Positions 4,628-20,670 of a DNA stretch of 64,000 nucleotides are shown here, piece by piece. Source of the DNA: an uncultured Gemmatimonadaceae bacterium (lineage in GTDB: Bacteria > Gemmatimonadota > Gemmatimonadetes > Gemmatimonadales > Gemmatimonadaceae). The DNA lies in the NCBI GenBank assembly GCA_963817955.1, contig CAWFQK010000004.1, forward strand, positions 1 to 64,000. Reading direction: 5' to 3'. Numbering within the stretch: position 1 is the first letter of the stretch; each line of letters opens with the position of its first letter. The notes below the pieces were generated by a model that searched no databases, had not been told where the DNA came from, and saw only the letters and a list, made by a program, of their open reading frames with translations. A program made the translations under genes and the position numbers.

Positions 4628-6871
4628 ATGAAACCCAACAACCAGGTCGATCGGCGCTCTTTTCTCCGGGTCACGGCCATCGCCTCCGGCGGCATCCTCT
4701 TCGCCAGCTACATCCATGCATTCGATACGGCTGAATCGTGGGCCGCGACGCCGGGCGCCGCGGATTTCGCGCCGAATGCGTTCATTCGTATCACACCCGA
4801 CGGCATCGTCACGATCATTGCCAAGAATCCGGAGGTGGGGCAGGGCGTAAAGACCATGCTCCCCATGCTGATTGCTGACGAGCTGGATGTGGAATGGAAG
4901 AACGTGCGTGTCGAGCAGGCACCGCTCGATTCGACCAAGTTCCAGGGACAGTCGGCCGGTGGCAGCATGGCAACGCCGACAAACTGGCTCCCGATGCGTC
5001 GCGTTGGCGCCGCTGCTCGTGCCATGCTCATCACCGCAGCCGCGCAGACGTGGGGCGTACCGGAATCGGAATGCGCGACGTCAGCGGGCTCGGTGCTCCA
5101 CAAACCAAGCCGCCGCTCCATGTCATACGGTCAGCTGGTGGATAAGGCGGCTCGTGTCCCCGCGCCGGCGCTCGACGCGGTGCGGCTCAAAGATCCGAAG
5201 GATTTCAAGATCATCGGTACCCGAGTGCCGAGCGTCGACAATCACGCGATCGTCACCGGTGCGCCGTTGTACGGGATCGACGTCAAGCTGCCGGGTATGC
5301 TCACCGCCGTCTACGCGAAGTGTCCCGTGTTCGGCGGCAAGGTCGTCAGTGCCAATCTGGACGAGATCAAGGCACTACCCGGCGTGCGACACGCCTTCGT
5401 GCTCGATGGCGGCGCGCAACTCAATGGCCTACTCAGCGGCGTGGCGATTGTCGCTGACAATTATTGGCTGGCTCAGAGTGCCCGCCGACAGCTCAAGGTC
5501 ACTTGGGACGAAGGCGCCACCGCTCAGCAGAGCAGCGCCGGCTTCGCCGCAAAGGCCGCGGAACTGTCAGCGCAGCCCCCGCAGCGCACGTTGCGGAAGG
5601 ACGGTGACGTGGATGCTGCGCTGAAGAGTGCCGCCAAGGTGGTAAAGGCGGACTACTACTACCCGTTCATCGCCCACGCATCGCTGGAGCCGCAAAACGC
5701 GACGGCCGCTTACAAAGACGGGAAGTTGGAGATCTGGGCGCCGACGCAGCAGCCGCAGGGTGGGCGCACGCTGGTTGCGAGGACTCTTGGCCTGCCAGAG
5801 ACGGACATCACGGTCCATCTCACGCGGAGTGGCGGCGGCTTTGGCCGGCGCCTCGGCAGCGACTTCATGGTCGAAGCCGCAGCGATTGCCAAGCAAATTC
5901 CCGGTGTGCCGGTGAAGCTGCTCTGGTCCCGCGAGGATGATACCCAGCACGACTTCTACCGTCCGGCAGGGTTCCATTACTTCACCGGCGGCGTGGATGC
6001 CAAGGGAAACCTCGTGGCCTGGCGCGATCACTTCGTATCGTTTGGCGAGGGTGAGAGCTTTGCTCAGAGCGCGCAGATGTCGCCTGCCGAGTTCCCGGCG
6101 CAATTTGTCCCGAACTTTGCATTGGATGTTTCCGTCATGCCATTGGGCGTGCCGACAGGGTTCCTTCGCGCACCCGGAAGCAACGCGCTTGCGTTCGTGA
6201 TCGAGTCGTTCATCGACGAATTGGCTCATGCGGCCGGCAAGGACCCCGTGCAGTTCCGACTGGATCTGCTCTCGCAGCATCAGGCGACCAGCGCCGTTCA
6301 GGCGGGCGCGCCCGGCGGGCCGCCTGGCGGGCCGCAATCCGGAATGGTAGACGCGAACCGCATGCGCGGTGTTCTCGAACTGGTCGCCGAGAAATCCGGA
6401 TGGGGCAAGACAACTTTGCCAAAGGGCACGGGTATGGGCGTCGCGTTCCATTTCAGCCATCGCGGATACTTTGCCGAAGTCGTACAGGCTACCGTCTCGA
6501 AAGCCGGTGCAGTGAAGGTCGACAAGGTGTGGGTGGCCGGCGACGTCGGAAGCCAGATCATCAATCCCAGCAACGCTGAGAATCAGGTTCAGGGAGCGGT
6601 GCTCGATGGCATTGCCGAGGCGCTTGGGCAAGAGATCGTGATCGAGAAGGGACGGGCGGTGCAGGCGAATTTCAATACGTTCCAGCTCCTGCGCTTGCGC
6701 CAGGCGTGTCCCGTCGAAGTGCATTTCAAGGTGACGGAGTTTTCGCCAACCGGACTGGGCGAGCCCGCCTTGCCGCCGGTCGTGCCGGCGCTCTGCAGCG
6801 CGATCTTCATGGCCACGGGAAAACGCGTGCGGTCGCTGCCACTCTCGAAGCAGGATCTGCACTGGGTCTGA
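4628..6871 (+). CDS. iorB: Molybdopterin-binding large subunit, xanthine dehydrogenase family (IorB-like), Tat signal
   Basis: Start at ATG 4628 ([13 protein letters not shown] twin-arginine); GGGFGRR, GLGEP motifs; follows iorA. Confidence 0.88.
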
Positions 6872-6892
6872 TCTCCCGGACGCGGTCACCAG

Positions 6893-6933
6893 ACGGAAAG
6901 GGTCCGAGCGATGTTTGCTCGGACCCTTTCCGT
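6893..6933. terminator. Probable bidirectional terminator hairpin between convergent genes
   Basis: Perfect 17-bp IR ACGGAAAGGGTCCGAGC/GCTCGGACCCTTTCCGT, 7-nt loop. Confidence 0.8.
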
Positions 6934-6957
6934 TCCAGTAGCGTTGATGTCAGTATG

Positions 6958-7890
6958 TCAGACCATCGCCTCGCCGACGATCCGGAGGGCAGCCCTCACG
7001 GCGCCCCGTGCCGCGATGACCGGCTCGCTCCGAACCTGTGCGCCGGGAACGGCTGACTTCAGGCGATGTTCCATGCGCTTCCGCAGCGTGGTGCCGCGTG
7101 AGAGCATGCCGCCAGAAAGCGCGACGGAGAGTGCCGCACGCTCGTCGCCGAACAGTTGGCGTGCCAGCGACCGCACGTGCAGCACCAATTCCTCGACAGC
7201 CAGGCTGACGAGCGCGTTTGCGCGAAGATCGCCCGAATCTGCGATACTGAGGACCACCGGTGCCAACGTCGCGAGCTGCGCCGGCGGTGCGTCGGCTGCC
7301 CAGGCGATCAGGTCCGATGTCTCATTGACCTCGGCCGCCGTGAGAATGGCACCAGTGAGTGCCGTCTCGGGTTCGCGTCCGTCCGCCGCCGAAGTCACGA
7401 CCGACAGCGCCTTTCGCCCGATCCAGGCACCGCTTCCTTCATCGCCACAAACCGGCCCCCAGCCGCCACACCGCGACGTCGCGCCGGTCGGGCTCCGGCC
7501 AAAGGCAACCGAGCCCGTTCCGCTGATCACGAGCACGCCGGGACCGTCGCCGAATGCGTCGTCAAGCGCCACGCTGAAATCGGAGTGAATGACGAGCTCC
7601 GAAGCGAGATCTCTGCTGACGAGCGCCTGCCAGAGCGCCTGCCGCTCTGCCTCTCGGCCAGCGCCGGCCACGCCGACGCAGAGGGCTCGGGGTACGACGT
7701 GGGTCATGTCGCATGACGCCAGAGCATCTCGCACGACGTCTGCAATGACGTTCGCCGAATGCTCCGCCTGCCCGGGTCGGACGGCGCTGCCGGGGCCGAT
7801 GGTCTCTGCGATCATCCGACCCTGTTCGTCCGCTACCATGGCGTGCGTTTTCGATCCGCCGCCGTCGATTCCAATTACGATGAACGTCAT
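6958..7890 (-). CDS. BadF/BadG/BcrA/BcrD-family amino-sugar kinase (GlcNAc/MurNAc kinase-like)
   Basis: Start MTFIVIGIDGGGSKT; ISGTGSVAFG, GGWG..GDEGSG motifs; overlaps stop of upstream SSS gene. Confidence 0.88.
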   Translation of the reverse strand: MTFIVIGIDGGGSKTHAMVADEQGRMIAETIGPGSAVRPGQAEHSANVIADVVRDALASCDMTHVVPRALCVGVAGAGREAERQALWQALVSRDLASELVIHSDFSVALDDAFGDGPGVLVISGTGSVAFGRSPTGATSRCGGWGPVCGDEGSGAWIGRKALSVVTSAADGREPETALTGAILTAAEVNETSDLIAWAADAPPAQLATLAPVVLSIADSGDLRANALVSLAVEELVLHVRSLARQLFGDERAALSVALSGGMLSRGTTLRKRMEHRLKSAVPGAQVRSEPVIAARGAVRAALRIVGEAMV

Positions 7891-9416
7891 GTCGTTTTGA
7901 CTTGCGCCGTCGTCGCCGGACTGGCGCCGTGCGTCAGCGACGAAAGAATGCCTACGAAGAGGGTGATAGTCGTGCCGATCAGCACGTACCAGGGATAGGC
8001 AATTGTTGCAACGGGGGCCAAGGTCGGTGCCCAGGCCGGCACGGCGGCGCTGATCTGCTTTGCGAACACGATGACGCTCATGATCGCGATGCCGACGGAC
8101 ATACCCAGAATTGCATCCCGCTGCCGGGCCCTGCGCCAGAAGATAGCGAGGAAGAAGCCGCCGAGCAGTCCGCCATAGGTAAAGGACGCAATGGACAAGG
8201 CGATGACGACGACCGGCGTCTTCTGGTTCTGGGGGAAGAGCAGCGCGCCGCCGGTGAGAACGATGCCCCACATCAGCGCGAACAGCCTGCCAACACGCAA
8301 CGTGTTCGCGTCGCTCGGAGCGCGTTTGGTCAGCGGCAGGTAAATGTCATGTGTCGATGCCGCAGCCAACGAATTGATCGCTCCGGAATGGGTGCTCATC
8401 GTGGCCGCAAGGATGGCGGCGAGCAGCAGACCGACGAGTCCGTGTGGCATTTGGTCGACGATGAACGTCGGAAAGATTGCATCGGGCGTTGGGAACTGCT
8501 GGCCGCCATACAATGCCCACAAACCGATACCGAGGAACAGAAAGAGCGTGAACTGAACGATGACAACCACGCCGCTGCCGATCACCGCCATCTGCGCAGC
8601 CCTGAGCGATCGTGCGGACAACAGTCGTTGCACAATGAGCTGATCGGCGCCGTGCGACGCCATCGACAGAAAAGCGCCGCCGATGATGCCGGCGAACATC
8701 GTGTGCGGGTCCCTGAGCGTAGTCGACCAGTTGATGACGCGCATCTTGCCCGCCGCCGCCGCCGCGGTGGTGATCGCACCCCATCCGCCGCTCACCAGGT
8801 GGCCAGCGAGGATCACCGCCGCCAAGCCACCGATCAGGTACACCGATGCCTGCACGATCTCGGTCCACACCACCGCGCGCATGCCGCCTTTGATGGTGTA
8901 GAGCACGGTCAGCGTTCCAAGCACGAGAACGGCGACGGGCATCACGGCGGCGCGGGGCAGCAGTGGTCCAATGATGAGCGCGATCGGCACCGCGGTGGCA
9001 AACACGCGGACCGAGTCGGCCATGCCACGCGTGGCCATGAATACGATGGACGTAAATCGTCGCGTGGCGAGACCGAACCGCTGTTCGAGCAGCGCGTACG
9101 CCGTGACGAGATTCCCCTCGTAGTAGCGTGGCAGCAGGGTGAACGCGAGCACGATGCGCCCGACGAGGTAGCCCGTCGCAATCTCGAGGAACCCGAGATT
9201 CGTCGTGTAGGCAAGACCCGGGATGCTGATGAACGTCAGCGCGCTCGTCTCGCTGGCGACGATCGAGAACATGACCGCCCACCACGGAATCTCACGATCC
9301 GCGACAAAGTAATCTTTGGAGTCGCGTTGGCGCCGCCCGACGTACACGCCGAGGAGCGTGATGCCGGCCAGATACGCGATGATGACGAGAAAGTCGAGCG
9401 CGTCTAAGCCGCGCAT
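7887..9416 (-). CDS. Sodium:solute symporter (SSS) family, probable amino-sugar transporter
   Basis: SIVASETSALTF, GGMRAVVWT, DQLIVQRLL, AATMST motifs; context. Confidence 0.9.
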   Translation of the reverse strand: MRGLDALDFLVIIAYLAGITLLGVYVGRRQRDSKDYFVADREIPWWAVMFSIVASETSALTFISIPGLAYTTNLGFLEIATGYLVGRIVLAFTLLPRYYEGNLVTAYALLEQRFGLATRRFTSIVFMATRGMADSVRVFATAVPIALIIGPLLPRAAVMPVAVLVLGTLTVLYTIKGGMRAVVWTEIVQASVYLIGGLAAVILAGHLVSGGWGAITTAAAAAGKMRVINWSTTLRDPHTMFAGIIGGAFLSMASHGADQLIVQRLLSARSLRAAQMAVIGSGVVVIVQFTLFLFLGIGLWALYGGQQFPTPDAIFPTFIVDQMPHGLVGLLLAAILAATMSTHSGAINSLAAASTHDIYLPLTKRAPSDANTLRVGRLFALMWGIVLTGGALLFPQNQKTPVVVIALSIASFTYGGLLGGFFLAIFWRRARQRDAILGMSVGIAIMSVIVFAKQISAAVPAWAPTLAPVATIAYPWYVLIGTTITLFVGILSSLTHGASPATTAQVKTT

Positions 9417-11351
9417 CTACTCCACCACATAGGCCTCCATCGCGAAGTATTCGGCGAGGCCCAGCCGATCCAGCTCGGCAGCCGTGCCTTTGTTGCGCGC
9501 TTCGACGCGCTGCCAAAACTCGCGCTCGTCGTACCCCCCCGGGAAGGGGGCGGAGTCCTTCTGTGATTGATGTTTGAAGATCGCTTGAATCTTCAGCCGC
9601 AGCTCTTCCTGGGAGAGTGGCACGAGCCACGTTGCTTCATGAATCGGCCACTCCTGCCACGCCCCGCGATACAGCCAGACCTCGGGACATGGCTGGCCCT
9701 TCAGCTCCAGCAGCGCCTTGTCGATCGCTTCCTTGCACATCCGATGCGTGCCGTGAGGATCGGACAAATCGCCGGCCACGAAGATGAGATCGGGCTGCAC
9801 TTCGGCGAGCAGCGCGCGCACGATCTCGACGTCCGCCGGTCCGATCGGGTCCTTGCGCACCTTGCCAGTCTGGTAGAACGGCAGATTGAGGAAGCGTGCA
9901 GCGGTGCGCGGTAGGCCGACCGTCTCGATGCCGCTCACCGCTTCCGCTTCGCGAATGAGCCGCTTGATGTCCGCGACTTCGGGAATGTCCACCTCGCCCG
10001 GAGTCTTTCGTTCGAGACACTCATGCACCTTGGCGGCGAGACCATCCAGTTTGGCGCGCTCGATCAGCCCGTGCGCGGCCATGCGCTCGAGAAAGTCGAC
10101 GTAGCGGCGCACATCGTGATCGAACACCGCGATGTTGCCGCTCGTCATGTACGCAACGATGATTTCGTTGTCGTTCTCGACGGTCTTGCGCAGAATACCG
10201 CCCATCGAGATGACGTCATCGTCGGGGTGCGGCGAGAAGCAGATGATCTTGCGCCCCATCGGCAGCTTCGACTTGCCGCGGATCTTTGCACCGAGGATGT
10301 TGAACACCTTGCCGTTCACCTCGCCGGGCGAGCCAAACTTCGCAACGAGCGACGACATGTGCGCGTCGGCATAGTCGCGCTGCGTCAGTTTGAGGATCGC
10401 CTTGTCGGTCTGCTGCGACAACCAGATCACGGCGCGCACGATGAGATCCTGCGTCCAGTGCACCTCGTCGAGGAGCCACGGCGTCTTGATGCGCGTGAGC
10501 TCGGCGCCGGCCGCGCGGTCGACGTAGAAGGTCGTGTTCGGATGGCGCTGGAGAAAAGTGGCTGCGACCTCGACGTCCACGTCGCCCTCGACGGCGCGCT
10601 TGACGATGCTGGCCTTGTGCTCACCCGTCGCAATGATGGCAATCTCGCGTGCATCGAGAATCGTCGCGACCCCCATCGTCACCGCCTCGCGCGGCACATA
10701 CTCGTCGCCGAAGAAATCAGCGGCGGCATCGCGGCGCGTGACGGCGTCGAGTGTCACGAGACGCGTGCGGCTCTCGGCGCCCGAGCCGGGTTCGTTGAAG
10801 CCGATATGGCCAGTCTTCCCGATGCCGAGAATCTGGAAATCGACCCCGCCGGCGCGTTCGATGGCCATCTCATAGCGCTGGGTCGCATCGTCGATCTGGT
10901 CCCGCGGTACGTCGCCGGGCGGGAGGTGTACGTTCTCTGGCTTGATGTCGATGTGCGAGAAGAGGTTCTCCCACATGAACCGATGATAGGAGTGAATGCT
11001 CTCCTTTGGCATCGGGTAATACTCGTCGAGATTGAACGAGACAACGTTCGCGAAGCTCAAGCCTTCGGTGCGATGCATGCGAATGAGCTCGCGGTAGACG
11101 CCAATCGGCGTCGACCCCGTGGCCAGGCCGAGCACCGCGCGGTCGCCCGATGCGGTACGCTCGCGAATGAGGGTGGCAATACGATTGGCGACGAGGCGTG
11201 CGATGTCCTCGTGATCTTCGACAACGACTGTCCGGATGCGCTCGCCTGCCGACCCGGTATGTGATACGCGAGAGGGCCCGCGATCAATCCGATCGCGAGC
11301 CCTCTCTGTCACGACCGCGTCCCGGCGTACGCCAGCGACCGACCGTTCCAT
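9417..11351 (-). CDS. nagB: Glucosamine-6-phosphate deaminase fused to C-terminal PIG-L-type deacetylase domain
   Basis: GLATGSTP, FNLDEY, GIGKTGHIGFNEPG; C-terminal SPHPDDD, DPHGTH, HQSQ. Confidence 0.93.
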   Translation of the reverse strand: MERSVAGVRRDAVVTERARDRIDRGPSRVSHTGSAGERIRTVVVEDHEDIARLVANRIATLIRERTASGDRAVLGLATGSTPIGVYRELIRMHRTEGLSFANVVSFNLDEYYPMPKESIHSYHRFMWENLFSHIDIKPENVHLPPGDVPRDQIDDATQRYEMAIERAGGVDFQILGIGKTGHIGFNEPGSGAESRTRLVTLDAVTRRDAAADFFGDEYVPREAVTMGVATILDAREIAIIATGEHKASIVKRAVEGDVDVEVAATFLQRHPNTTFYVDRAAGAELTRIKTPWLLDEVHWTQDLIVRAVIWLSQQTDKAILKLTQRDYADAHMSSLVAKFGSPGEVNGKVFNILGAKIRGKSKLPMGRKIICFSPHPDDDVISMGGILRKTVENDNEIIVAYMTSGNIAVFDHDVRRYVDFLERMAAHGLIERAKLDGLAAKVHECLERKTPGEVDIPEVADIKRLIREAEAVSGIETVGLPRTAARFLNLPFYQTGKVRKDPIGPADVEIVRALLAEVQPDLIFVAGDLSDPHGTHRMCKEAIDKALLELKGQPCPEVWLYRGAWQEWPIHEATWLVPLSQEELRLKIQAIFKHQSQKDSAPFPGGYDEREFWQRVEARNKGTAAELDRLGLAEYFAMEAYVVE

Positions 11352-11375
11352 GTTTCCTGTGAGACAGGGAAATCG

Positions 11376-11732
11376 TTACGCGGAGAACGAGCTACCGCAC
11401 CCGCAGCCGCCGGTTGAGTTCGGATTCTTGAAAGTGAATCCCGAGCCCTGCATGGACGACACGTAGTCGATCGTCACTCCATTCAGATACTGTGCCGAGA
11501 ACGGATCGACGAATACGCGCCAATCGCCCTGACCGACGACGAGATCGTCTTCCGCCGCCTCGTCCTCGATGAGGAGACCGTACTTGAAGCCGCTGCAGCC
11601 GCCCGGCTGGACGCTCACACGGAGCCCGCCCTTGGCCGGATCAACCGCTTCCTGCTCCATAAACTTCTTCACCTCGGCGGAGGCGACCGGTGTCACGGTC
11701 ACCAACACCTCAGGCTGATTCATTGTGCTCAT
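11376..11732 (-). CDS. A-type Fe-S carrier (HesB/IscA/ErpA family)
   Basis: GGCSGFKY and terminal CGCGSSF. Confidence 0.95.
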   Translation of the reverse strand: MSTMNQPEVLVTVTPVASAEVKKFMEQEAVDPAKGGLRVSVQPGGCSGFKYGLLIEDEAAEDDLVVGQGDWRVFVDPFSAQYLNGVTIDYVSSMQGSGFTFKNPNSTGGCGCGSSFSA

Positions 11733-11771
11733 TGCGGACCCTCCATGTGAGCGGCAGACAAGACCGCGATA

Positions 11772-11790
11772 GACACAATTTAGCAGTGTC
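11772..11790 (-). promoter_or_regulatory. Putative extended -10 promoter (TGcTAAATT) flanked by GACAC-N9-GTGTC inverted repeat, upstream of the A-type carrier gene
   Basis: Minus strand reads GACACTGCTAAATTGTGTC about 40 nt before ATG; SD GGAGG precedes ATG. Confidence 0.45.
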
Positions 11791-11801
11791 GGAACAGGGG
11801 T

Positions 11802-13657
<1,856 letters not shown>

Positions 13658-13661
<4 letters not shown>

Positions 13662-14860
13662 GGTTTTCCCGGGGCGGTGGATGGTGAGAGCCGATCGAAC
13701 GTCGTGACCACGCTGTCGGCAAGTGCGACTCGCACACGGCCGATCTTGTTATTGTTACGGGTTGGATCGACGCGATTGCTGAGCAAGATGATGAACAGGT
13801 CGCGCTGGGGGTCGATCCAGATCGACGTGCCGGTAAATCCGGTGTGGCCAAATGCTGCATCGGATAGCTTGTGCCCCGCGGAATTGCTGCCGTCCGGTTT
13901 CTGCCAACCGAGGGCGCGATCGCGTACCTGGCGCGTGGTGAATGTCGCGATCATCGCCGGCGTGATCACGCGTGCGCCATCGAGCGTCCCGCCGCTCAGG
14001 TACATGCGGGCGAACCGTGCCAGGTCATGCCCGCTGCTGAACAGACCAGCATGGGCCGATACACCGCCCAGGTAGTAGGCGCGTTCGTCGTGGACCATGC
14101 CTCGCACCAGCCGGTGGCGCTGCACGGAATCGAATTCGGTCGGCGCAATGCGTGGCTCGAGCGCCACCGGTGGTCGGTACATGGTTTCGTGCATGGCCAG
14201 TGGCTCGAAGACGTGATCGTGCAGGTACTGGTCCAGCGACTGTTCGGTGACCTGTTCGACCAGCCGCCCGAGCATGTAGGCGCCAATGTCGCTGTAGATC
14301 ATGCGCACGCCGGGCAGCGTGTCGAGTGGCGTAGAGAACATCAGCTTGGCCAGACTATCGGGGTCGTGCGTCACGGCGTCGTACGGCTTGAACGCTGGCA
14401 GCCCGGACGTGTGGGTGAGCAGATGGCGAATCGTCACGCGCTCCTTGTATCGTCCCGTCCAGGCGGGCAGGTAGCGCTGCAGCGGCGCATCGAGGTCGAC
14501 GCGATGCGCATCGACGAGTTGCATCATCGCCGTCGTGAGGCCGATGACCTTCGTGAGCGACGCGAGATCCCACAATGTGTGCTCGTCCGGCCGAGGGGTG
14601 GGTGCCCAATCGAGCTGGCCGACACCATATTCGGCGAGCACGCCGCGGTGAGTGCCGACCACTGCGAAAGCGCCGGGAAAGGCATTGTCAGCGCGTGCGC
14701 GATCGAGCACGGTTACGAGGTCCGCTTGGAGCGCGGCGCTGATCGCGTCGACCGTAGGGCTGGCTGTTTGTGCCGCCGTCACAGTAGACACAGGTTGACG
14801 ACAAGCAGTGGCGACAGCGCCGAGCAACAAACATGTGATCGAGGAGCGAAGATGATGCAC
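13658..14860 (-). CDS. Beta-lactamase-family serine hydrolase lipoprotein (AmiE/YbbE-like muropeptide amidase candidate)
   Basis: ASLTK (SxxK), YSD, HTGFTG, LLTHTSG, AHAGLFS; signal peptide with lipobox VATA-C from GTG 14860 (start uncertain). Confidence 0.82.
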
Positions 14861-16141
14861 GATCGAAGCCGGTTGATGGTGATCGCGCTGTTGTTGGCGA
14901 CCGCTGGTTGCGGCGCGCGGCTCGTCATGAACGGTGGCGCACCGGCGGCCGTCCGGCCGGGCATTACCGTGTTGCTCGACGACAGTCTTGCGCTCGTCCG
15001 CGGCAAGCGGGTGGCCCTGCTGACGAACCAGACCGGGGTGGACGCGCACGGCCAATCGGATATCGATCTGTTGCGCAATGCGCGTGCGCGCGACGCAGGC
15101 GTGGTGCTGGTACGGCTCTTCTCGCCGGAGCACGGCATTCGTGGGACCGAGGATCAGGCGCACATCGCAAGCGGGATCGACCAGTCGAGCGGGCTCCTTG
15201 TGCATTCGCTTTATACCGTCACGGCGATTGCGCCGCCGGACAGTTTGCTAGGAGATCTCGACGCACTGGTGTTCGATCTGCAGGACATCGGCACTCGGAC
15301 GTGGACGTACGTAGGATCGATGATCTATGCGATGCGTGCGGCCGCCCGGCACCATATGCCGATCATCGTACTCGACCGCCCGAATCCGATCACCGGCGAC
15401 CACGTCGACGGCCCCATGCTCGATACGGGTTTATCCAACGCCGAGGAACAGACACCGCAACGGCCAGCGAAACCGTACGCATTATACCCGTTCCCGCTGC
15501 GGCACGGAATGACGATGGGTGAGCTCGCGTTGTTCTACAACAGCGTGCTGGGCATTCGCGCGCAGTTGCACGTGATCCCGGCCGCGGGCTGGCGTCGATC
15601 GATGTGGCTCGATGAAACGGGCCTGCCTTGGGTTCGGCCGTCGCCGAACATCCCGACGTTGGCGAGTGCGTTGACCTACCCGTCTCTGGTCGCGTTCGAG
15701 GGGAGTAACGTCTCCGTGGGGCGCGGGACGAGCGATGCCTTTCAGCGGTTTGGAGCGCCGTGGCTCGACGCGGTGCGTGTGGCATCGTTGCTCAATGGAC
15801 GCCATTTGCCGGGGGTCACGTTCGTCGTCGATTCGTTCACGCCGAGGAATCCGGGGGATGCAAAGTACGCCGATCGGCATATTCCGGGCGTGCGGATCGC
15901 CGTGTCCAACCGGGATCAGGTACAGGTGGGACGCGTGTGCGCCGCCATTCTATGGGCGATCCTGCAGGCGAATCGCGATTCGCTCCGCATCACGGCGAGA
16001 ACGTTCGACGAACGGTTTGGGAGCGCAAGTACACGCGCGGCCATCGTCAGTGGGGCAGACCCTGATGTCGCGCTTGACCGGCAGAGCGCGGCGGTCGAGA
16101 GCTTCATGCGAACATCGGCGCCGTTCCGGATGTATCGGTAA
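14852..16141 (+). CDS. namZ: Exo-beta-N-acetylmuramidase (DUF1343/YbbC), lipoprotein
   Basis: TNQTG, FSPEHGIRG, FDLQDIGTR, VLDRPNP, RHGMTMGE, PSPN, VSVGRGT; SD GAGGAG at 14841; lipobox TAG-C. Confidence 0.9.
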   Translation: MMHDRSRLMVIALLLATAGCGARLVMNGGAPAAVRPGITVLLDDSLALVRGKRVALLTNQTGVDAHGQSDIDLLRNARARDAGVVLVRLFSPEHGIRGTEDQAHIASGIDQSSGLLVHSLYTVTAIAPPDSLLGDLDALVFDLQDIGTRTWTYVGSMIYAMRAAARHHMPIIVLDRPNPITGDHVDGPMLDTGLSNAEEQTPQRPAKPYALYPFPLRHGMTMGELALFYNSVLGIRAQLHVIPAAGWRRSMWLDETGLPWVRPSPNIPTLASALTYPSLVAFEGSNVSVGRGTSDAFQRFGAPWLDAVRVASLLNGRHLPGVTFVVDSFTPRNPGDAKYADRHIPGVRIAVSNRDQVQVGRVCAAILWAILQANRDSLRITARTFDERFGSASTRAAIVSGADPDVALDRQSAAVESFMRTSAPFRMYR

Positions 16142-16262
16142 TACTGTTTTTTCAGCGATACCTGAGGTCGATTGTCACGCAGTCAACGGATGATCGAGCG
16201 GGGCCGGGCCGCCTCGCCCGGTATTTGCCGACTCCCAACGTTCGCCACCTCCGGAGCTTCTG

Positions 16263-16613
16263 ATGAATGCTCGCTTCTTTCCGCTGGCCGCGCTGGCCGC
16301 GCTGGCCGCGCTGGCCGCGCTGACGGCCTGCGGTCCGCGACAGGTCGAGGTTCGTACCGCGCCGACCGAGCAGTCGCAGGTTTCGGTGCAGGTCGCGAAT
16401 AGGCTGAGCCAGGCCGTCAACGTGTACGCGAACGTCGGCGGCGTGGACACGTTCCTGCGCCAGGTGACCGCGAACACGACTACGACGATCCCGGTGCAGG
16501 GGTTTGCCCAGGGGACCGCCGTTACGCTCCGCGCTGTAACCGTGGATGGGACGCATACGTATACACGCGACAAGGTGGTACTGATCGGCACCGTCGTGTT
16601 TCCGCTACCGTAA
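16263..16613 (+). CDS. Hypothetical small lipoprotein
   Basis: Signal peptide with lipobox LTA-C; SD GGAG; beta-strand-rich mature part. Confidence 0.75.
   Translation: MNARFFPLAALAALAALAALTACGPRQVEVRTAPTEQSQVSVQVANRLSQAVNVYANVGGVDTFLRQVTANTTTTIPVQGFAQGTAVTLRAVTVDGTHTYTRDKVVLIGTVVFPLP
16284..16319 (+). repeat. In-frame tandem repeat (CTGGCCGCG)x4 encoding LAA x4
   Basis: Four exact 9-bp copies in the signal peptide. Confidence 0.9.
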
Positions 16614-16768
16614 GTGTTTGCGCGCCAGTTGCGGTTGCTACAACTCTCTGAGAGAGATACCTTTACGTCCGGAGCAGTACTCCGGTTTGCTTGGCGTCAT
16701 TTGCTCCGTCCGCCCGCCGCGCCGGAACTCCGGTGCAGCACTGCGCCCTCGCGCCTCATCGAAGCCGA

Positions 16769-17464
16769 ATGAAGCTTCTCCCGGACTGGCTCAAAAACGG
16801 GTATTTGAAGGTCATCGATCCGGTCGCCAATTGGCTGGTCCGTCGAGGAGTCCATCCGAACACCATCACCATTTTCGGCACGCTCTGCACACTCGCAGGC
16901 GGGGTGATTTACGCTACCGGCCACATCTCCACGGGGGGCTGGTTCCTGAGCTTGACTGCGCTGTTCGACGTGCTAGACGGCACGGTGGCGCGCCGGTCGA
17001 ACAAGAGCTCCACCTTCGGCGCTTTTCTCGATTCCACGCTCGACCGGGTTGCTGATGGGGCGCTGCTCAGTGGGCTCGCGGTCTTCTATGCACTGAACCC
17101 GCAGCACCACAACGTCCCGATGATGGCGGTGTGTTTGCTCGGGCTCATCGGCGCCTACACGACGTCGTACATTCGGGCTCGCGCGGAAGCCCTCGGGTTG
17201 GACGCAAAGGTCGGCATGGTGCAGCGTCCAGAGCGGATCGTGCTATTGTCGGTACCGCAGGCGTTCTTTGGTTTGGTGCTCAACGGCTGGATTCTTGGCG
17301 CCATCATCGTTTTCTTGTCCCTGACGGCGTGGATCACCGTCGTCCAGCGGATGGTTTTCGTCTACCAGCAGACGAACTCGCGCGGCGTCGCATCGCCGAT
17401 TCCGCTTCCCACCGAAAGAACATTGTGGTTGCGTCGCCGTCCGCGCACGGGCACGCGCCCTTAG
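16769..17464 (+). CDS. CDP-alcohol phosphatidyltransferase, probable phosphatidylinositol-phosphate synthase
   Basis: PNTIT; DVLDGTVARR..GAFLDSTLDR signature; SYIRARAEALG; adjacent to ino1. Confidence 0.88.
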   Translation: MKLLPDWLKNGYLKVIDPVANWLVRRGVHPNTITIFGTLCTLAGGVIYATGHISTGGWFLSLTALFDVLDGTVARRSNKSSTFGAFLDSTLDRVADGALLSGLAVFYALNPQHHNVPMMAVCLLGLIGAYTTSYIRARAEALGLDAKVGMVQRPERIVLLSVPQAFFGLVLNGWILGAIIVFLSLTAWITVVQRMVFVYQQTNSRGVASPIPLPTERTLWLRRRPRTGTRP

Positions 17465-19268: not shown

Positions 19269-19562
19269 ATGCGACACTTCTTTCGTAGCCATAGGGCGCC
19301 TGCCGACGTACTCGCGGCCGCCGATCAGTTCTTCCCAAGCCTCGGGTTGGCGCAGAACACCACCGCGCCCCGCACGCGGACCTACTCCGGCCAGCTCGGC
19401 GCGCTCAAGCTGTCCGTCAAGGCGGAAGGCGGCCACTACACGTTCATCCAGGTCGACACCGACCAGATGGGTGAGAGCCGAATGGACCGTAACGTGAAGC
19501 GGTTCTTCGTTGCCGTGCACAAGACGGAGCATCAGGAACACGTGCTCAGCGCGAACTACTAA
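19269..19562 (+). CDS. Hypothetical protein (97 aa)
   Basis: Typical codon usage; fills the gap; TAATG coupling to next gene. Confidence 0.75.
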   Translation: MRHFFRSHRAPADVLAAADQFFPSLGLAQNTTAPRTRTYSGQLGALKLSVKAEGGHYTFIQVDTDQMGESRMDRNVKRFFVAVHKTEHQEHVLSANY

Positions 19563-20670
19563 TGGCGGTACGTAAGAGGGTCGCGGCTGGCGCCTCGACC
19601 CTGTTGTCGCGCGATCAGCTCCTCGACTTGTACTATCGGATGCGGCTCACCCGGACGCTCGAGGAGCGGCTGGTGGCGTTGTACCGGCAGACCAAGGTCG
19701 TCGGCGGGCTCTTTCGCTCGCTGGGACAGGAAGCGGACGCCGTGGGCAGTGCCTACGCGCTCGAACGCCGCGACATCTTATCGCCGCTCATTCGCAATCT
19801 GGGTGCGATGCTCGTGAAGGGCGCCACGCCGCTCGAAATTCTACGACAGTACATGGCGAAGGCGGACTCACCGACGCGCGGTCGCGAATTGAACATCCAT
19901 TTTGGCGACACTCGAGCGCGGCTTCATCGGCCAGATCTCGCCGCTCGGCGACATGGTGCCCGTCATGGCTGGTGTGACGTTGACCTTCAAAATGCGCGGC
20001 GAGGATCGTGTCGGTCTGGTGTATGTCGGCGATGGAGCGACGTCCACCGGCGCCTTCCACGAAGGTATCAACTTCGCTGCCGTGCAGCGCTGCCCGCTCG
20101 TGGTGATTGTGGAGAACAACGGCTATGCGTATTCCACGCCGACGGCAAGACAGACTGCCGCGAAGCAGTTCGTCGACAAGGCGATCGGGTATGGCGTGCC
20201 CGGTGAACGGGCGGACGGTAACGACGTGTTGGCCGTCTATGACGTGACGAAGCGCGCGGTGGATCGCGCGCGGCGTGGCGAGGGCGTGACGTTGATCGAG
20301 CTCATGACCTACCGTCGCAGAGGGCACGCCGAACACGACAATCAATCGTACGTTCCCGCAGGGCGAGATCGATCGTTGGGAACGCGAGAACGACCCGATT
20401 GCGCGCTTTCATGCGCGGCTGCAGGACGACTTCTCCGTCAAGGCCGCCGAGATCGACTCGATCGACGAACGCGTCGGCAAGGAAGTGGACGATGCAACTG
20501 ACCTCGCCGAGCGCTCCGGGATTCCGGACGCGCACGACGCGCTGGTCGGCGTGTACGCCGATCCTCCGTCCGAGCAGCTGCTCTGGTTCCGCGAAGGCAC
20601 CGCGAGCGTCGTCGACGTGCACGAACGTCCGGAAGGGTGGGGTACCTACTCGGCGGGCGAGAAACGCTAA
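19562..20670 (+). CDS. TPP-dependent 2-oxoacid dehydrogenase E1 alpha (frameshifts near 19910 and 20360, likely sequencing errors)
   Basis: GQEA; GDGATS..ENNGYA TPP motif; YRRRGHAEHD; split over three frames. Confidence 0.9.

Follow-up and report, generated by a model that had tools for sequence, protein, structure and literature searches.

How could a diderm bacterium take up and break down the amino sugars of peptidoglycan with neither a PTS nor AmpG? The question is raised by the genome (94% complete) of an uncultured Gemmatimonadaceae soil bacterium (GCA_963817955.1), of which we analysed positions 1-64,000 of the forward strand of contig CAWFQK010000004.1, here called the window. Seven genes are packed into positions 6958-16141, NamZ on the plus strand lying opposite a minus-strand operon of six (families called by Pfam and NCBIfam profile matches):

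6958-7890, minus strand: BadF-type sugar kinase, 310 aa; candidate MurNAc/GlcNAc 6-kinase, MurK-like (PF01869, 124.3 bits)
7887-9416, minus strand: SSS1, sodium:solute symporter, 509 aa; candidate MurNAc/GlcNAc importer (PF00474, 148.7 bits)
9417-11351, minus strand: NagB-PIG-L fusion, 644 aa; GlcN-6-P deaminase and LmbE-type zinc deacetylase domains (PF01182 and PF02585)
11376-11732, minus strand: HesB/ErpA-like A-type iron-sulfur carrier, 118 aa (PF01521, 70.5 bits)
11802-13661, minus strand: SSS2, long sodium:solute symporter, 619 aa; candidate MurNAc/anhMurNAc/disaccharide importer (PF00474, 111.7 bits)
13658-14860, minus strand: beta-lactamase-fold serine hydrolase, predicted lipoprotein, 400 aa; candidate MurNAc-L-Ala amidase/peptidase, AmiE/PBP4B type (PF00144, 219.5 bits)
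14852-14860: head-to-head start-codon overlap of NamZ and hydrolase, ATGATGCAC (ATG for NamZ, GTG for the hydrolase)
14852-16141, plus strand: NamZ-family (GH171) exo-beta-N-acetylmuramidase, predicted lipoprotein, 429 aa (PF07075, 217.5 bits; PF20732, 109.4 bits)

All genes named by a sequence-only reading of this DNA, i.e. the lipoprotein hydrolases, two SSS symporters, NagB-PIG-L fusion and BadF-type kinase, were found with Pfam and NCBIfam, but that reading had overlooked the HesB/ErpA-like gene inside the operon. The overlapping or abutting divergent packing it described is borne out: the kinase and SSS1 genes overlap by 4 bp, SSS1 directly abuts the fusion, SSS2 and the hydrolase again overlap by 4 bp, and the shared stretch of NamZ and the hydrolase measures 9 bp. 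In relatives, the latter is a palindrome, ATGCAT, in five of eight loci inspected, and ATG...CAT across 9 bp in the other three. The HesB/ErpA-like gene (TIGR00049, 120 bits; cut-off 58.8) is the only copy in the genome and is flanked within the operon by gaps of 24 and 69 bp. Long opposite-strand ORFs (7902-9407, plus; 10023-11264, plus; 12124-13530, minus) had no Pfam match and were set aside as by-products of 63% G+C.

We consider it likely that the locus lets the cell import and degrade peptidoglycan amino sugars independently of both PTS and AmpG. Wall fragments in the periplasm would first lose their stem peptides to the lipoprotein serine hydrolase, after which the lipoprotein NamZ would clip MurNAc from their non-reducing ends; a GH3 NagZ-like enzyme encoded elsewhere would assist. 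SSS1 and SSS2 would move the released sugars over the inner membrane via a sodium (or proton) gradient, the likeliest cargoes being MurNAc and GlcNAc and, in the case of SSS2, anhMurNAc or a disaccharide. The BadF-type kinase would form 6-phosphates, and MurQ, plus AnmK for the anhydro form, would lead to GlcNAc-6-P, on which the two halves of the fused enzyme would act in turn, PIG-L removing the acetyl and NagB the amino group, to yield fructose-6-P, acetate and ammonium.

The gene arrangement is not due to chance: the neighbours of the fusion recur across 78 Gemmatimonadaceae loci. Counting in each case only loci with enough flank, we found SSS1 at 56 of 57, the kinase at 50 of 51, HesB, in the same place, at 72 of 74, SSS2 at 49 of 56, the hydrolase at 49 of 54 and NamZ at 25 of 51; as kin are not independent, such counts within the phylum overstate the number of events. 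Variants of the cluster include NamZ / GH3-hydrolase-fusion-SSS1-kinase in G027 (family f4) and hydrolase-fusion-kinase in family f8; of 18 loci from Gemmatimonadota families other than Gemmatimonadaceae, 15 have the fusion by itself, surrounded by unrelated genes. Gemmatimonadales clusters without the fusion still hold NamZ / GH3-SSS2-HesB-SSS1-kinase.

Conservation extends well beyond the family. We sampled 79 SSS1-family loci, 68 of them from outside Gemmatimonadota, and sought partner genes within 8 kb. At least one was present at 58 loci (47 of the 68 outside the phylum) and none at 21; the hydrolase was a partner at 39 loci, the kinase at 36, MurQ at 23, NamZ at 20, NagB at 17, GH3 at 15 and SSS2 at 14. 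Two loci, L203 and L265, carry colinear LysR / kinase-MurQ-SSS1-GH3-hydrolase::NamZ operons, and in L257, L266 and L223 SSS1 lies directly upstream of hydrolase::NamZ fusions. SSS2 relatives adjoin MurQ, AnmK, GH3, hydrolase or SSS1 at 22 of 80 loci in many phyla, e.g. as MurQ-SSS1-hydrolase-SSS2 in Vicinamibacteraceae (L146) and MurQ-AnmK-GH3-like-SSS2 in Longimicrobiales (L142), with MurQ and AnmK confirmed by NCBIfam in four of these loci, the two examples included. A partner gene was absent at the other 58, and the 14 SSS2 loci scanned with Pfam (Bacteroidota, cyanobacteria, Planctomycetota and others) had mostly unrelated contexts. In Acidobacteriota and other phyla, relatives of SSS1 or SSS2 lie beside murQ, kinase, NamZ, GH3 and serine hydrolase genes. 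The cargo of SSS-family proteins cannot be read from sequence; MurNAc and GlcNAc are candidate substrates of SSS1 (TIGR00813, 214.7 bits; cut-off 184), and MurNAc, anhMurNAc or a disaccharide of SSS2 (126.7 bits, under the same cut-off).

The steadiness of the fusion-SSS1-kinase core relative to NamZ (56/57 and 50/51 versus 25/51) would also suit a nag-type operon for GlcNAc from chitin or other glycans, with SSS1 as GlcNAc importer, the kinase as NagK, the fusion acting on GlcNAc-6-P, and NamZ, hydrolase and SSS2 as a separate module that happens to adjoin. Such a route would be complete with transporter, kinase, deacetylase and deaminase, requiring no MurNAc step; the genome encodes a GH20 hexosaminidase, and the best NCBIfam match of the kinase is a GlcNAc kinase, NagK_SO3507. 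We nevertheless regard this as quite improbable as the main function, given the MurQ, NamZ and serine hydrolase genes adjoining SSS1-family loci, the NamZ and GH3 genes retained by Gemmatimonadales even where the fusion is missing, and the Pfam-scanned clusters, none of which showed a chitinase. Nor are the two readings exclusive, since MurK-type kinases accept both sugars, according to the available part of PMC10465942.

The kinase itself favours the peptidoglycan route. Its best solved relative is PDB 8zo3, annotated 'N-acetylmuramic acid/N-acetylglucosamine kinase' (E 1e-36 over 293 residues), which we take to be MurK of Clostridium acetobutylicum. The kinase gene adjoins MurQ in Acidobacteriota loci. 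NamZ, a single-copy gene, has as best solved relatives 4k05 (E 1.5e-57) and 4jja, and its motif FSPEHGIRG is invariant across six aligned homologues. The serine hydrolase carries an SxxK motif (SLTK), with PBP4B as its best NCBIfam match. Both kinase and hydrolase score under the cut-offs of their nearest named equivalogs (114.8 bits versus 370 for NagK_SO3507; 161.8 versus 385 for PBP4B). The two window hydrolases carry an N-terminal signal peptide whose last residue is Cys (LLATAGC and AVATAC), a feature conserved in orthologues; lipoboxes are clearer in relatives (e.g. LVAGC, LAAGC, LGAC). Moreover, the three hydrolases are connected through gene fusions, with GH3::hydrolase in L036 and hydrolase::NamZ in L203, L265, L257, L266 and L223.

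Searching the genome for the remaining steps, we located murQ (370 bits; cut-off 302) adjoining anmK (331 bits) on another contig (C2), and two GH3 genes, one of which shares 47% identity with the GH3 encoded in the G027 cluster. Neither a PTS EIIC nor an AmpG-like permease (TIGR00901) was found in this genome, in agreement with the PTS- and AmpG-independent character proposed from the window. MurA is present; the organism is therefore not an auxotroph. These results also bear on whether the system is housekeeping only, taking the place of AmpG, NagZ, AnmK and MurQ in the recycling of self-derived wall material with no foreign scavenging. In favour of this are the near-universal occurrence of MurQ (183/201) and the kinase (161/201) among Gemmatimonadota genomes, the presence of MurA, and the pairing of MurQ with AnmK, whose substrate is generated by the cell's own lytic transglycosylases; with no AmpG-like gene found, some other permease must import turnover products. 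However, NamZ and the hydrolase are of extracytoplasmic exo-enzyme types that, according to the available parts of PMC8054146 and bioRxiv 10.1101/2021.12.02.470905, degrade added peptidoglycan in Bacillus subtilis and Tannerella; an outer-membrane beta-barrel or TonB part joins the cluster in some relatives (L257, L096, L222), and the final outcome of the pathway is breakdown to fructose-6-P. An exclusively housekeeping role thus appears doubtful. The two roles are not separable by sequence, and both own turnover and dead neighbours are likely sources of wall material.

The last step depends on the fusion, a full-length member, with identical architecture, of the NCBIfam family NF002557 / PRK02122, 'glucosamine-6-phosphate deaminase-like protein' or long NagB (901 bits; cut-off 384). 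It is the only match to this model in the genome at E<=0.001, and the genome's only NagB. Its N-terminal half scores above the cut-off of the nagB equivalog TIGR00502 (262.1 versus 236.9), and the motifs SPHPDDD and HGTH are intact. A literature search found no functional test of the second domain of this family. Among 201 Gemmatimonadota genomes, the fusion scored above cut-off in 113 and NagA in none (in the genome studied here, the best NagA score was 21 bits against a cut-off of 226), which fits a role of the PIG-L half as the deacetylase. NagA-like matches (144-182 bits) were confined to family f10 (11/11 genomes), where a short stand-alone NagB takes the place of the fusion; likewise, of five Acidobacteriota genomes with a homologous cluster, four have NagA and none the fusion.

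Alternatively, the PIG-L half may have a different N-acetylated sugar as its substrate (a disaccharide or free GlcNAc, in the manner of archaeal Dac enzymes) or be regulatory, with an unrecognized enzyme taking GlcNAc-6-P. In approximately 70 of the 201 genomes MurQ is accompanied by neither NagA nor the fusion, which means that something else can handle GlcNAc-6-P there, and the sole solved relatives of the PIG-L region, matched weakly (E ~4e-6), are diacetylchitobiose deacetylases. The single control genome that passed the fusion-family cut-off is most likely Bacteroides thetaiotaomicron, a control that has NagA. The nagB of the Flavobacterium johnsoniae chitin locus is presumably of the long form. 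This gene could not be expressed, and its deletion was without effect, according to the available part of PMC5127042. On the other hand, fusion to a domain above the nagB equivalog cut-off argues for consecutive steps, the metal and catalytic motifs are intact, the distributions of NagA and fusion complement each other, both among families and from phylum to phylum, and no other NagB exists in this genome. On balance we judge a function other than GlcNAc-6-P deacetylation to be rather unlikely. Kinase and fusion are not co-distributed throughout the phylum: of the 11 genomes of family f6, 9 encode the fusion and none the kinase.

How does the route compare with established systems, as described in the available parts of the cited papers? 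The B. subtilis operon murQ-murR-murP-amiE-nagZ-namZ(ybbC) (PMC5061867, PMC8054146) has the same extracytoplasmic trio of NamZ, beta-lactamase-fold amidase and GH3 NagZ, and the same MurQ step; here, GH3 is encoded elsewhere in the genome, being in-cluster in relatives of the window. Its importer is the phosphorylating PTS MurP, whereas here two SSS symporters and a separate kinase are present, murQ is unlinked and lies with anmK, MurR is missing, the enzymes are predicted lipoproteins of a diderm, and the NagB-PIG-L fusion lies inside the operon. E. coli (murQ-murP-yfeW(PBP4B) with AmpG, NagZ, AnmK, NagA and NagB; PMC5061867) shares MurQ and AnmK, and the third gene of its murQ operon encodes PBP4B, the best named, sub-threshold match of the hydrolase; AmpG, MurP and NagA were not found here. 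C. acetobutylicum MurK (cited in PMC10465942) shares the BadF/ASKHA fold, but the window kinase is an equivalog by no curated model, MurNAc/GlcNAc being its candidate substrates.

Tannerella already provides a precedent for MurNAc use by a diderm independently of a PTS (PMC5790795, PMC5388701), so the idea is not novel in kind. The T. forsythia cluster ampG-namZ(ybbC)-murT-murK-murQ (PMC5388701, PMC5790795, PMC7670621, PMC10465942, bioRxiv 10.1101/2021.12.02.470905) likewise combines periplasmic NamZ, a secondary MurNAc transporter and a BadF-fold kinase, followed by MurQ. In contrast, the window kinase is far nearer 8zo3 (130 bits) than Tannerella MurK (27 bits), AmpG was not found in this genome, and the organism makes its own MurNAc through MurA. 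SSS1/SSS2 relatives were absent from all 20 Bacteroidota murQ loci, and a putative MurT-type protein next to the Tannerella-type murK-murQ pair of L292, a locus from this phylum, has neither a PF00474 match nor profile likeness to SSS1 or SSS2.

Collectively, the comparative evidence supports the diderm salvage variant that the sequence-only reading had proposed, i.e. hydrolases, Na+-symporters, kinase and fused NagB. Three computational checks that might have refuted this proposal, on conservation of the cluster, on the remaining pathway genes and on the nearest solved relative of the kinase, all favoured it. The locus is most likely a variant of the MurK/MurQ pathway known from Bacillus and Tannerella, in which sodium-driven importers and a fused two-step enzyme would be the replacement parts. 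For the NF002557 / PRK02122 family, the addition is one of context: a whole NagA-less class.

The locus at 6958–16141 is a variant of the known MurK/MurQ pathway and is best read as a sodium-symporter-run system for uptake and catabolism of amino sugars, with those of peptidoglycan as the presumed substrates. Because the G+C content of the window is 60–67%, it contains many long spurious ORFs; Pfam and NCBIfam recognized one coherent gene set in this interval. This confirmed the genes named by a sequence-only reading, which had overlooked the HesB/ErpA-like gene. With starts fixed from translations and orthologues, the genes are:

14852–16141, plus strand, NamZ (PF07075 and PF20732)
13658–14860, minus strand, β-lactamase-fold serine hydrolase, first in minus-strand transcription order
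11802–13661, minus strand, SSS2, a sodium:solute symporter of 619 residues, second
11376–11732, minus strand, HesB/ErpA-like A-type Fe-S carrier, third
9417–11351, minus strand, NagB-PIG-L fusion, fourth
7887–9416, minus strand, SSS1, a symporter of 509 residues, fifth
6958–7890, minus strand, BadF-type kinase, last

With these starts, two gene pairs of the operon share 4 bp, a third pair abuts, and HesB is set off by gaps of 24 and 69 bp. The flanking genes are unrelated to the cluster: a molybdopterin-binding oxidoreductase subunit gene is convergent with the kinase, CDP-alcohol phosphatidyltransferase and myo-inositol-1-phosphate synthase genes lie beyond NamZ, and the window starts with an H+-pyrophosphatase fragment and an amino-acid permease. 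The cluster has no regulator gene; a promoter and terminator pattern scan of 6500–16700 returned 2 and 7 sites versus 2.2 and 5.8 expected, i.e. chance level, and no Rfam family matched 6000–17000 at gathering scores. Sequencing-run matches were to four soil DNA runs of one study, with small word shares; no RNA run was among those listed. Further along, a 2-oxoacid dehydrogenase E1 component (19562–20501, plus strand) is split over two overlapping frames, with ORF 19562–20206 covering profile positions 1–95 and ORF 19902–20501 positions 93–237. The frameshift is either genuine or stems from an error in the assembly.

Several pathway genes noted earlier as absent from the window were sought, together with ampG, in the whole assembly (4.53 Mb, nine contigs, 94% complete). 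MurQ (370 bits; equivalog cut-off 302) is encoded on contig C2 directly beside AnmK (331 bits), with unrelated genes around them, and the genome holds MurA, one GH20 gene and two GH3 genes, one of them 47% identical to the in-cluster GH3 of a relative. The contexts of both GH3 genes, of the GH20 gene and of a hydrolase paralogue in this genome were uninformative. NagA was not found in the 94% complete genome (best TIGR00221 score 21 bits versus a cut-off of 225.65), nor did the same assembly give a TIGR00901 match for an AmpG-like permease or a PF02378 match for a PTS EIIC, including the MurP type. These results agree with the proposal of a PTS-independent, AmpG-free system. On paper, the window genes and the rest of the genome make up a complete route to fructose-6-P. 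MurNAc, anhMurNAc or GlcNAc outside the cell would be imported by a symporter and phosphorylated by the kinase, or by AnmK; MurQ would then lead to GlcNAc-6-P, which the fusion would turn into fructose-6-P.

Both NamZ domains pass their gathering scores (PF07075, 217.5 bits versus 26.9; PF20732, 109.4 bits versus 25). Its residues E93, within FSPEHGIRG, and R291, within SVGRGT, do not vary across six homologues and would correspond, judged by position only, to Glu92 and Arg279 of BsNamZ, which are described as proposed active-site residues, Glu92 being the proposed catalytic one (PMC8054146). The N-termini of NamZ and the hydrolase are alike, in that charged residues, a hydrophobic segment and a Cys follow one another; canonical lipoboxes occupy this place in orthologues, and the N-termini of NamZ in the window and in orthologues read as a signal peptide ending in Cys. 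NamZ, a single-copy gene in this genome, is predicted to be extracytoplasmic and is a candidate for releasing MurNAc from non-reducing ends.

The translated hydrolase contains SLTK (SxxK) and HTG (HxG near the C-terminus), which we take to be the serine-hydrolase motifs of a β-lactamase fold, presumably shared by the Bacillus amidase AmiE. Its best named relative is PBP4B, although the score against equivalog NF002968 (161.8 bits) is under the cut-off of 385. PBP4B is described as the product of the third gene in the E. coli murQ operon, and AmiE as belonging to the Bacillus operon (PMC5061867). Relatives of the hydrolase are encoded with NagZ, NamZ or MurQ, and also occur fused to GH3 and to NamZ. 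A second β-lactamase-fold gene of the genome (G000 C1:173480–174562), 44% identical to the cluster's hydrolase, has ECF sigma factor, PDZ-domain and ZIP-transporter genes as neighbours; the in-cluster hydrolase of G027, a relative from family f4, is slightly closer to this paralogue (51%) than to the window's copy (46%).

NamZ and the hydrolase start head to head over a common 9-bp stretch, ATGATGCAC (14852–14860), in which the start codons overlap; unless transcription gives leaderless mRNAs, the promoter of either gene has to be located within the other one. In five of the eight relatives examined, the bases common to both starts are the palindrome ATGCAT, so that both proteins start Met-His:

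L010, 2618–2623, ATGCAT at the head-to-head starts
L015, 6425–6430, the same
L021, 6429–6434, the same
L031, 3125–3130, the same
L033, 6362–6367, the same

A synteny survey, proposed from the sequence alone as a check on the system, found the cluster kept in Gemmatimonadaceae and relatives of its parts next to MurQ in other phyla. The 78 loci closest to the fusion are nearly all from Gemmatimonadaceae/Gemmatimonadetes (72–87% identity). In Gemmatimonadaceae loci whose flanks reach far enough to be counted, SSS1 (56/57) and the kinase (50/51) come after the fusion, and HesB (72/74), SSS2 (49/56) and the hydrolase (49/54) come before it. A divergent NamZ accompanies the operon at 25 of 51 loci; where it is missing, GH3 genes precede the hydrolase. 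Gene order at family level says little by itself, because the inositol genes are equally syntenic. In seven other Gemmatimonadota families the fusion is solitary among unrelated genes in 15 of 18 loci; G027 has NamZ facing GH3-hydrolase-fusion-SSS1-kinase, and two genomes of family f8 have hydrolase-fusion-kinase or kinase-fusion. The genome has no A-type Fe-S carrier gene other than this HesB/ErpA-like one, which is also kept in Gemmatimonadales clusters without the fusion (SSS2-HesB-SSS1-kinase). We know of no enzyme of the cluster that needs an Fe-S cluster; HesB may be a passenger gene or supply metal to the LmbE-type (PIG-L) domain.

SSS1 passes both PF00474 (148.7) and TIGR00813 (214.7; cut-off 184), while SSS2 passes PF00474 (111.7) and falls below the TIGR00813 cut-off (126.7 versus 184). 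The 120 SSS2 homologues listed are all at least 76% identical and named only 'sodium:solute symporter', and the ESM Atlas placed both symporters in generic SSF clusters only. At E ≤ 1e-30, an exhaustive profile-free search recovered 1090 SSS2-type representatives, with named members from Myxococcales, Planctomycetia and cyanobacteria. From an alignment of diverse members we collected 80 SSS2 loci of many phyla, of which 22 had at least one peptidoglycan-sugar partner gene within 8 kb; among the 58 without a partner, 14 were scanned with Pfam and showed mostly unrelated contexts. Loci with partners include:

L119, Acidobacteria, MurQ facing SSS2
L146, Vicinamibacteraceae, MurQ-SSS1-hydrolase-SSS2
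L120, MurQ, short NagB, kinase and SSS1-hydrolase-SSS2
L142, Longimicrobiales, and also L156 and L163, MurQ-AnmK-NagZ-like-SSS2
L113, Nitrospirota, GH3-SSS2

NCBIfam placed MurQ above its cut-off in L146, L120, L119 and L142 and confirmed AnmK in L142. The same approach applied to SSS1 yielded 79 new loci, 68 of them outside Gemmatimonadota and mostly from Acidobacteriota. A partner was present in 58 of the 79: the hydrolase in 39, the kinase in 36, MurQ in 23, NamZ in 20, NagB in 17, GH3 in 15 and SSS2 in 14. In a full-text literature search, no paper connected MurQ, AnmK or the recycling of peptidoglycan to a solute symporter of this family. In L119, GlcF/GlcE-like genes of the glycolate/lactate oxidase type (6817–9320, minus strand) directly adjoin the MurQ and SSS2 pair and could serve to dispose of D-lactate released by MurQ. 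At two loci that are not from Gemmatimonadota, a GHL10 (PF02638) glycoside-hydrolase-like gene stands ahead of SSS1-hydrolase-SSS2 (L120, 3746–5011, and L115, 3778–5091, both plus strand), the latter with a GntR/HutC-type regulator upstream.

The predicted extracytoplasmic enzymes also occur as natural fusion proteins:

L036 4708–7629, plus strand, GH3::β-lactamase-fold, 973 aa, in one Gemmatimonadaceae MAG
L203 12000–14474, plus strand, hydrolase::NamZ, 824 aa
L265 11492–13921, plus strand, hydrolase::NamZ, 809 aa
L257 and L266 9442–11889, plus strand, hydrolase::NamZ
L223 9474–11960, plus strand, hydrolase::NamZ

The five hydrolase::NamZ loci (809–828 aa) comprise four from Acidobacteriota and one labelled Clostridia. 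L203 and L265 share the order LysR facing kinase-MurQ-SSS1-GH3-hydrolase::NamZ; in the three others hydrolase::NamZ comes straight after SSS1, one of them having an outer-membrane β-barrel gene upstream. No triple SSS::hydrolase::NamZ fusion was present in the eight loci checked, where the symporter has an ORF of its own that lies 4 bp upstream or abuts. The cross-phylum clusters and the hydrolase::NamZ fusions are the strongest evidence that the parts would share one substrate and that the symporters probably belong to the MurQ route.

The kinase (PF01869, 124.3 bits) is, by homology, a candidate MurNAc and/or GlcNAc O6 kinase. It matched the MurNAc/GlcNAc kinase 8zo3 at E 1e-36 (130 bits) versus 2e-5 (27 bits) for Tannerella MurK, and scored 114.8 bits against the NagK_SO3507 equivalog, under the cut-off of 370. 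The Tannerella cluster is described as ampG-namZ-murT-murK-murQ (PMC5388701, PMC7670621). One paper assigns MurT in its introduction to the 'sodium symporter superfamily' and in its discussion to the 'major facilitator superfamily' (PMC5790795); as these statements conflict, MurT was compared with SSS1 and SSS2 indirectly. Among 20 Bacteroidota murQ loci, none had an SSS1 or SSS2 relative within ~8.5 kb of murQ. In locus L292, MurQ is preceded by a Tannerella-type MurK (8ow9, E 1.8e-64) and this by a 435-aa ORF in the murT position, taken as MurT from gene order only, which had no Pfam match at E ≤ 1e-6 and hhalign probabilities of 0.2% versus SSS1 and 0.1% versus SSS2. Because this ORF is unlike either symporter and the window kinase, nearer to 8zo3, sits on another branch than Tannerella MurK, the window system appears to share Tannerella's way of working but to come from other transporter and kinase lineages.

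By sequence, the fusion is an ordinary, full-length member of NF002557/PRK02122 (901 bits; cut-off 384), the 'long NagB'. Its N-terminal half passes the nagB equivalog TIGR00502 (262.1 versus 236.9), and SPHPDDD and HGTH, presumably the metal and catalytic motifs of the LmbE-type domain, are intact. In a phylum sample of 201 Gemmatimonadota genomes, including four flagged as unpublished (G055, G095, G155 and G180) on which no conclusion hinges, the fusion was above the NF002557 cut-off in 113 (109/197 without the four) and MurQ above that of TIGR00274 in 183, while no genome had NagA above the TIGR00221 cut-off (0/201; 0/197 without the four). NagA-like matches (144–182 bits) were confined to family f10 (11/11 genomes), which has short stand-alone NagB genes and is without MurQ. 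Five Acidobacteriota genomes with a homologous cluster have NagA above cut-off in four cases, short NagB in two and the fusion in none. This distribution over the two phyla fits a PIG-L half that would do the job of NagA. Against such a role, ~70 of the 201 genomes have MurQ with neither NagA nor the fusion, family f6 has the fusion without a kinase homologue, and B. thetaiotaomicron, most likely the single control above the fusion-family cut-off, has NagA. In the fusion-less loci L225, L255 and L137 no positional replacement was seen downstream of the kinase, as the genes there are convergent. Kinase homologues (E ≤ 1e-25) occur in 161 of the 201 genomes, and their co-distribution with the fusion, which is not tight, was dropped as an argument. 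Our literature search found no paper on a NagB-PIG-L enzyme or on activity of the fusion; the NagB of the F. johnsoniae chitin locus is reported as one that could not be expressed (PMC5127042).

Tentatively, and as something short of probable, we propose a joint reading. SSS1 and SSS2 would be the first recognized members of two sodium symporter subfamilies that bring in peptidoglycan sugars to feed the MurQ pathway. Both would have no relation to MurP, MurT or AmpG and would be the principal way in for these sugars in Gemmatimonadota and Acidobacteriota, with SSS2 standing in for AmpG by importing the anhydro form or a disaccharide. In an entire class of bacteria that has lost NagA, GlcNAc-6-P would be deacetylated by the PIG-L half of the long NagB. 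So far as our literature search reaches, neither an association of symporter subfamilies with MurQ in two soil phyla nor a whole NagA-less class with the long NagB as its obvious candidate deacetylase has been described.

In soil, Gemmatimonadota and Acidobacteriota rank among the most abundant phyla. Much of the organic nitrogen there is in muramic acid and glucosamine that come from dead bacteria, and the consumers of these sugars are poorly known. The locus and its relatives offer a concrete candidate route by which these phyla may consume cell-wall amino sugars. They also provide a candidate importer of MurNAc-type sugars for diderms without PTS and AmpG, a candidate activity for the serine hydrolase that accompanies NamZ and NagZ, and a candidate function for the second domain of the very common long NagB.
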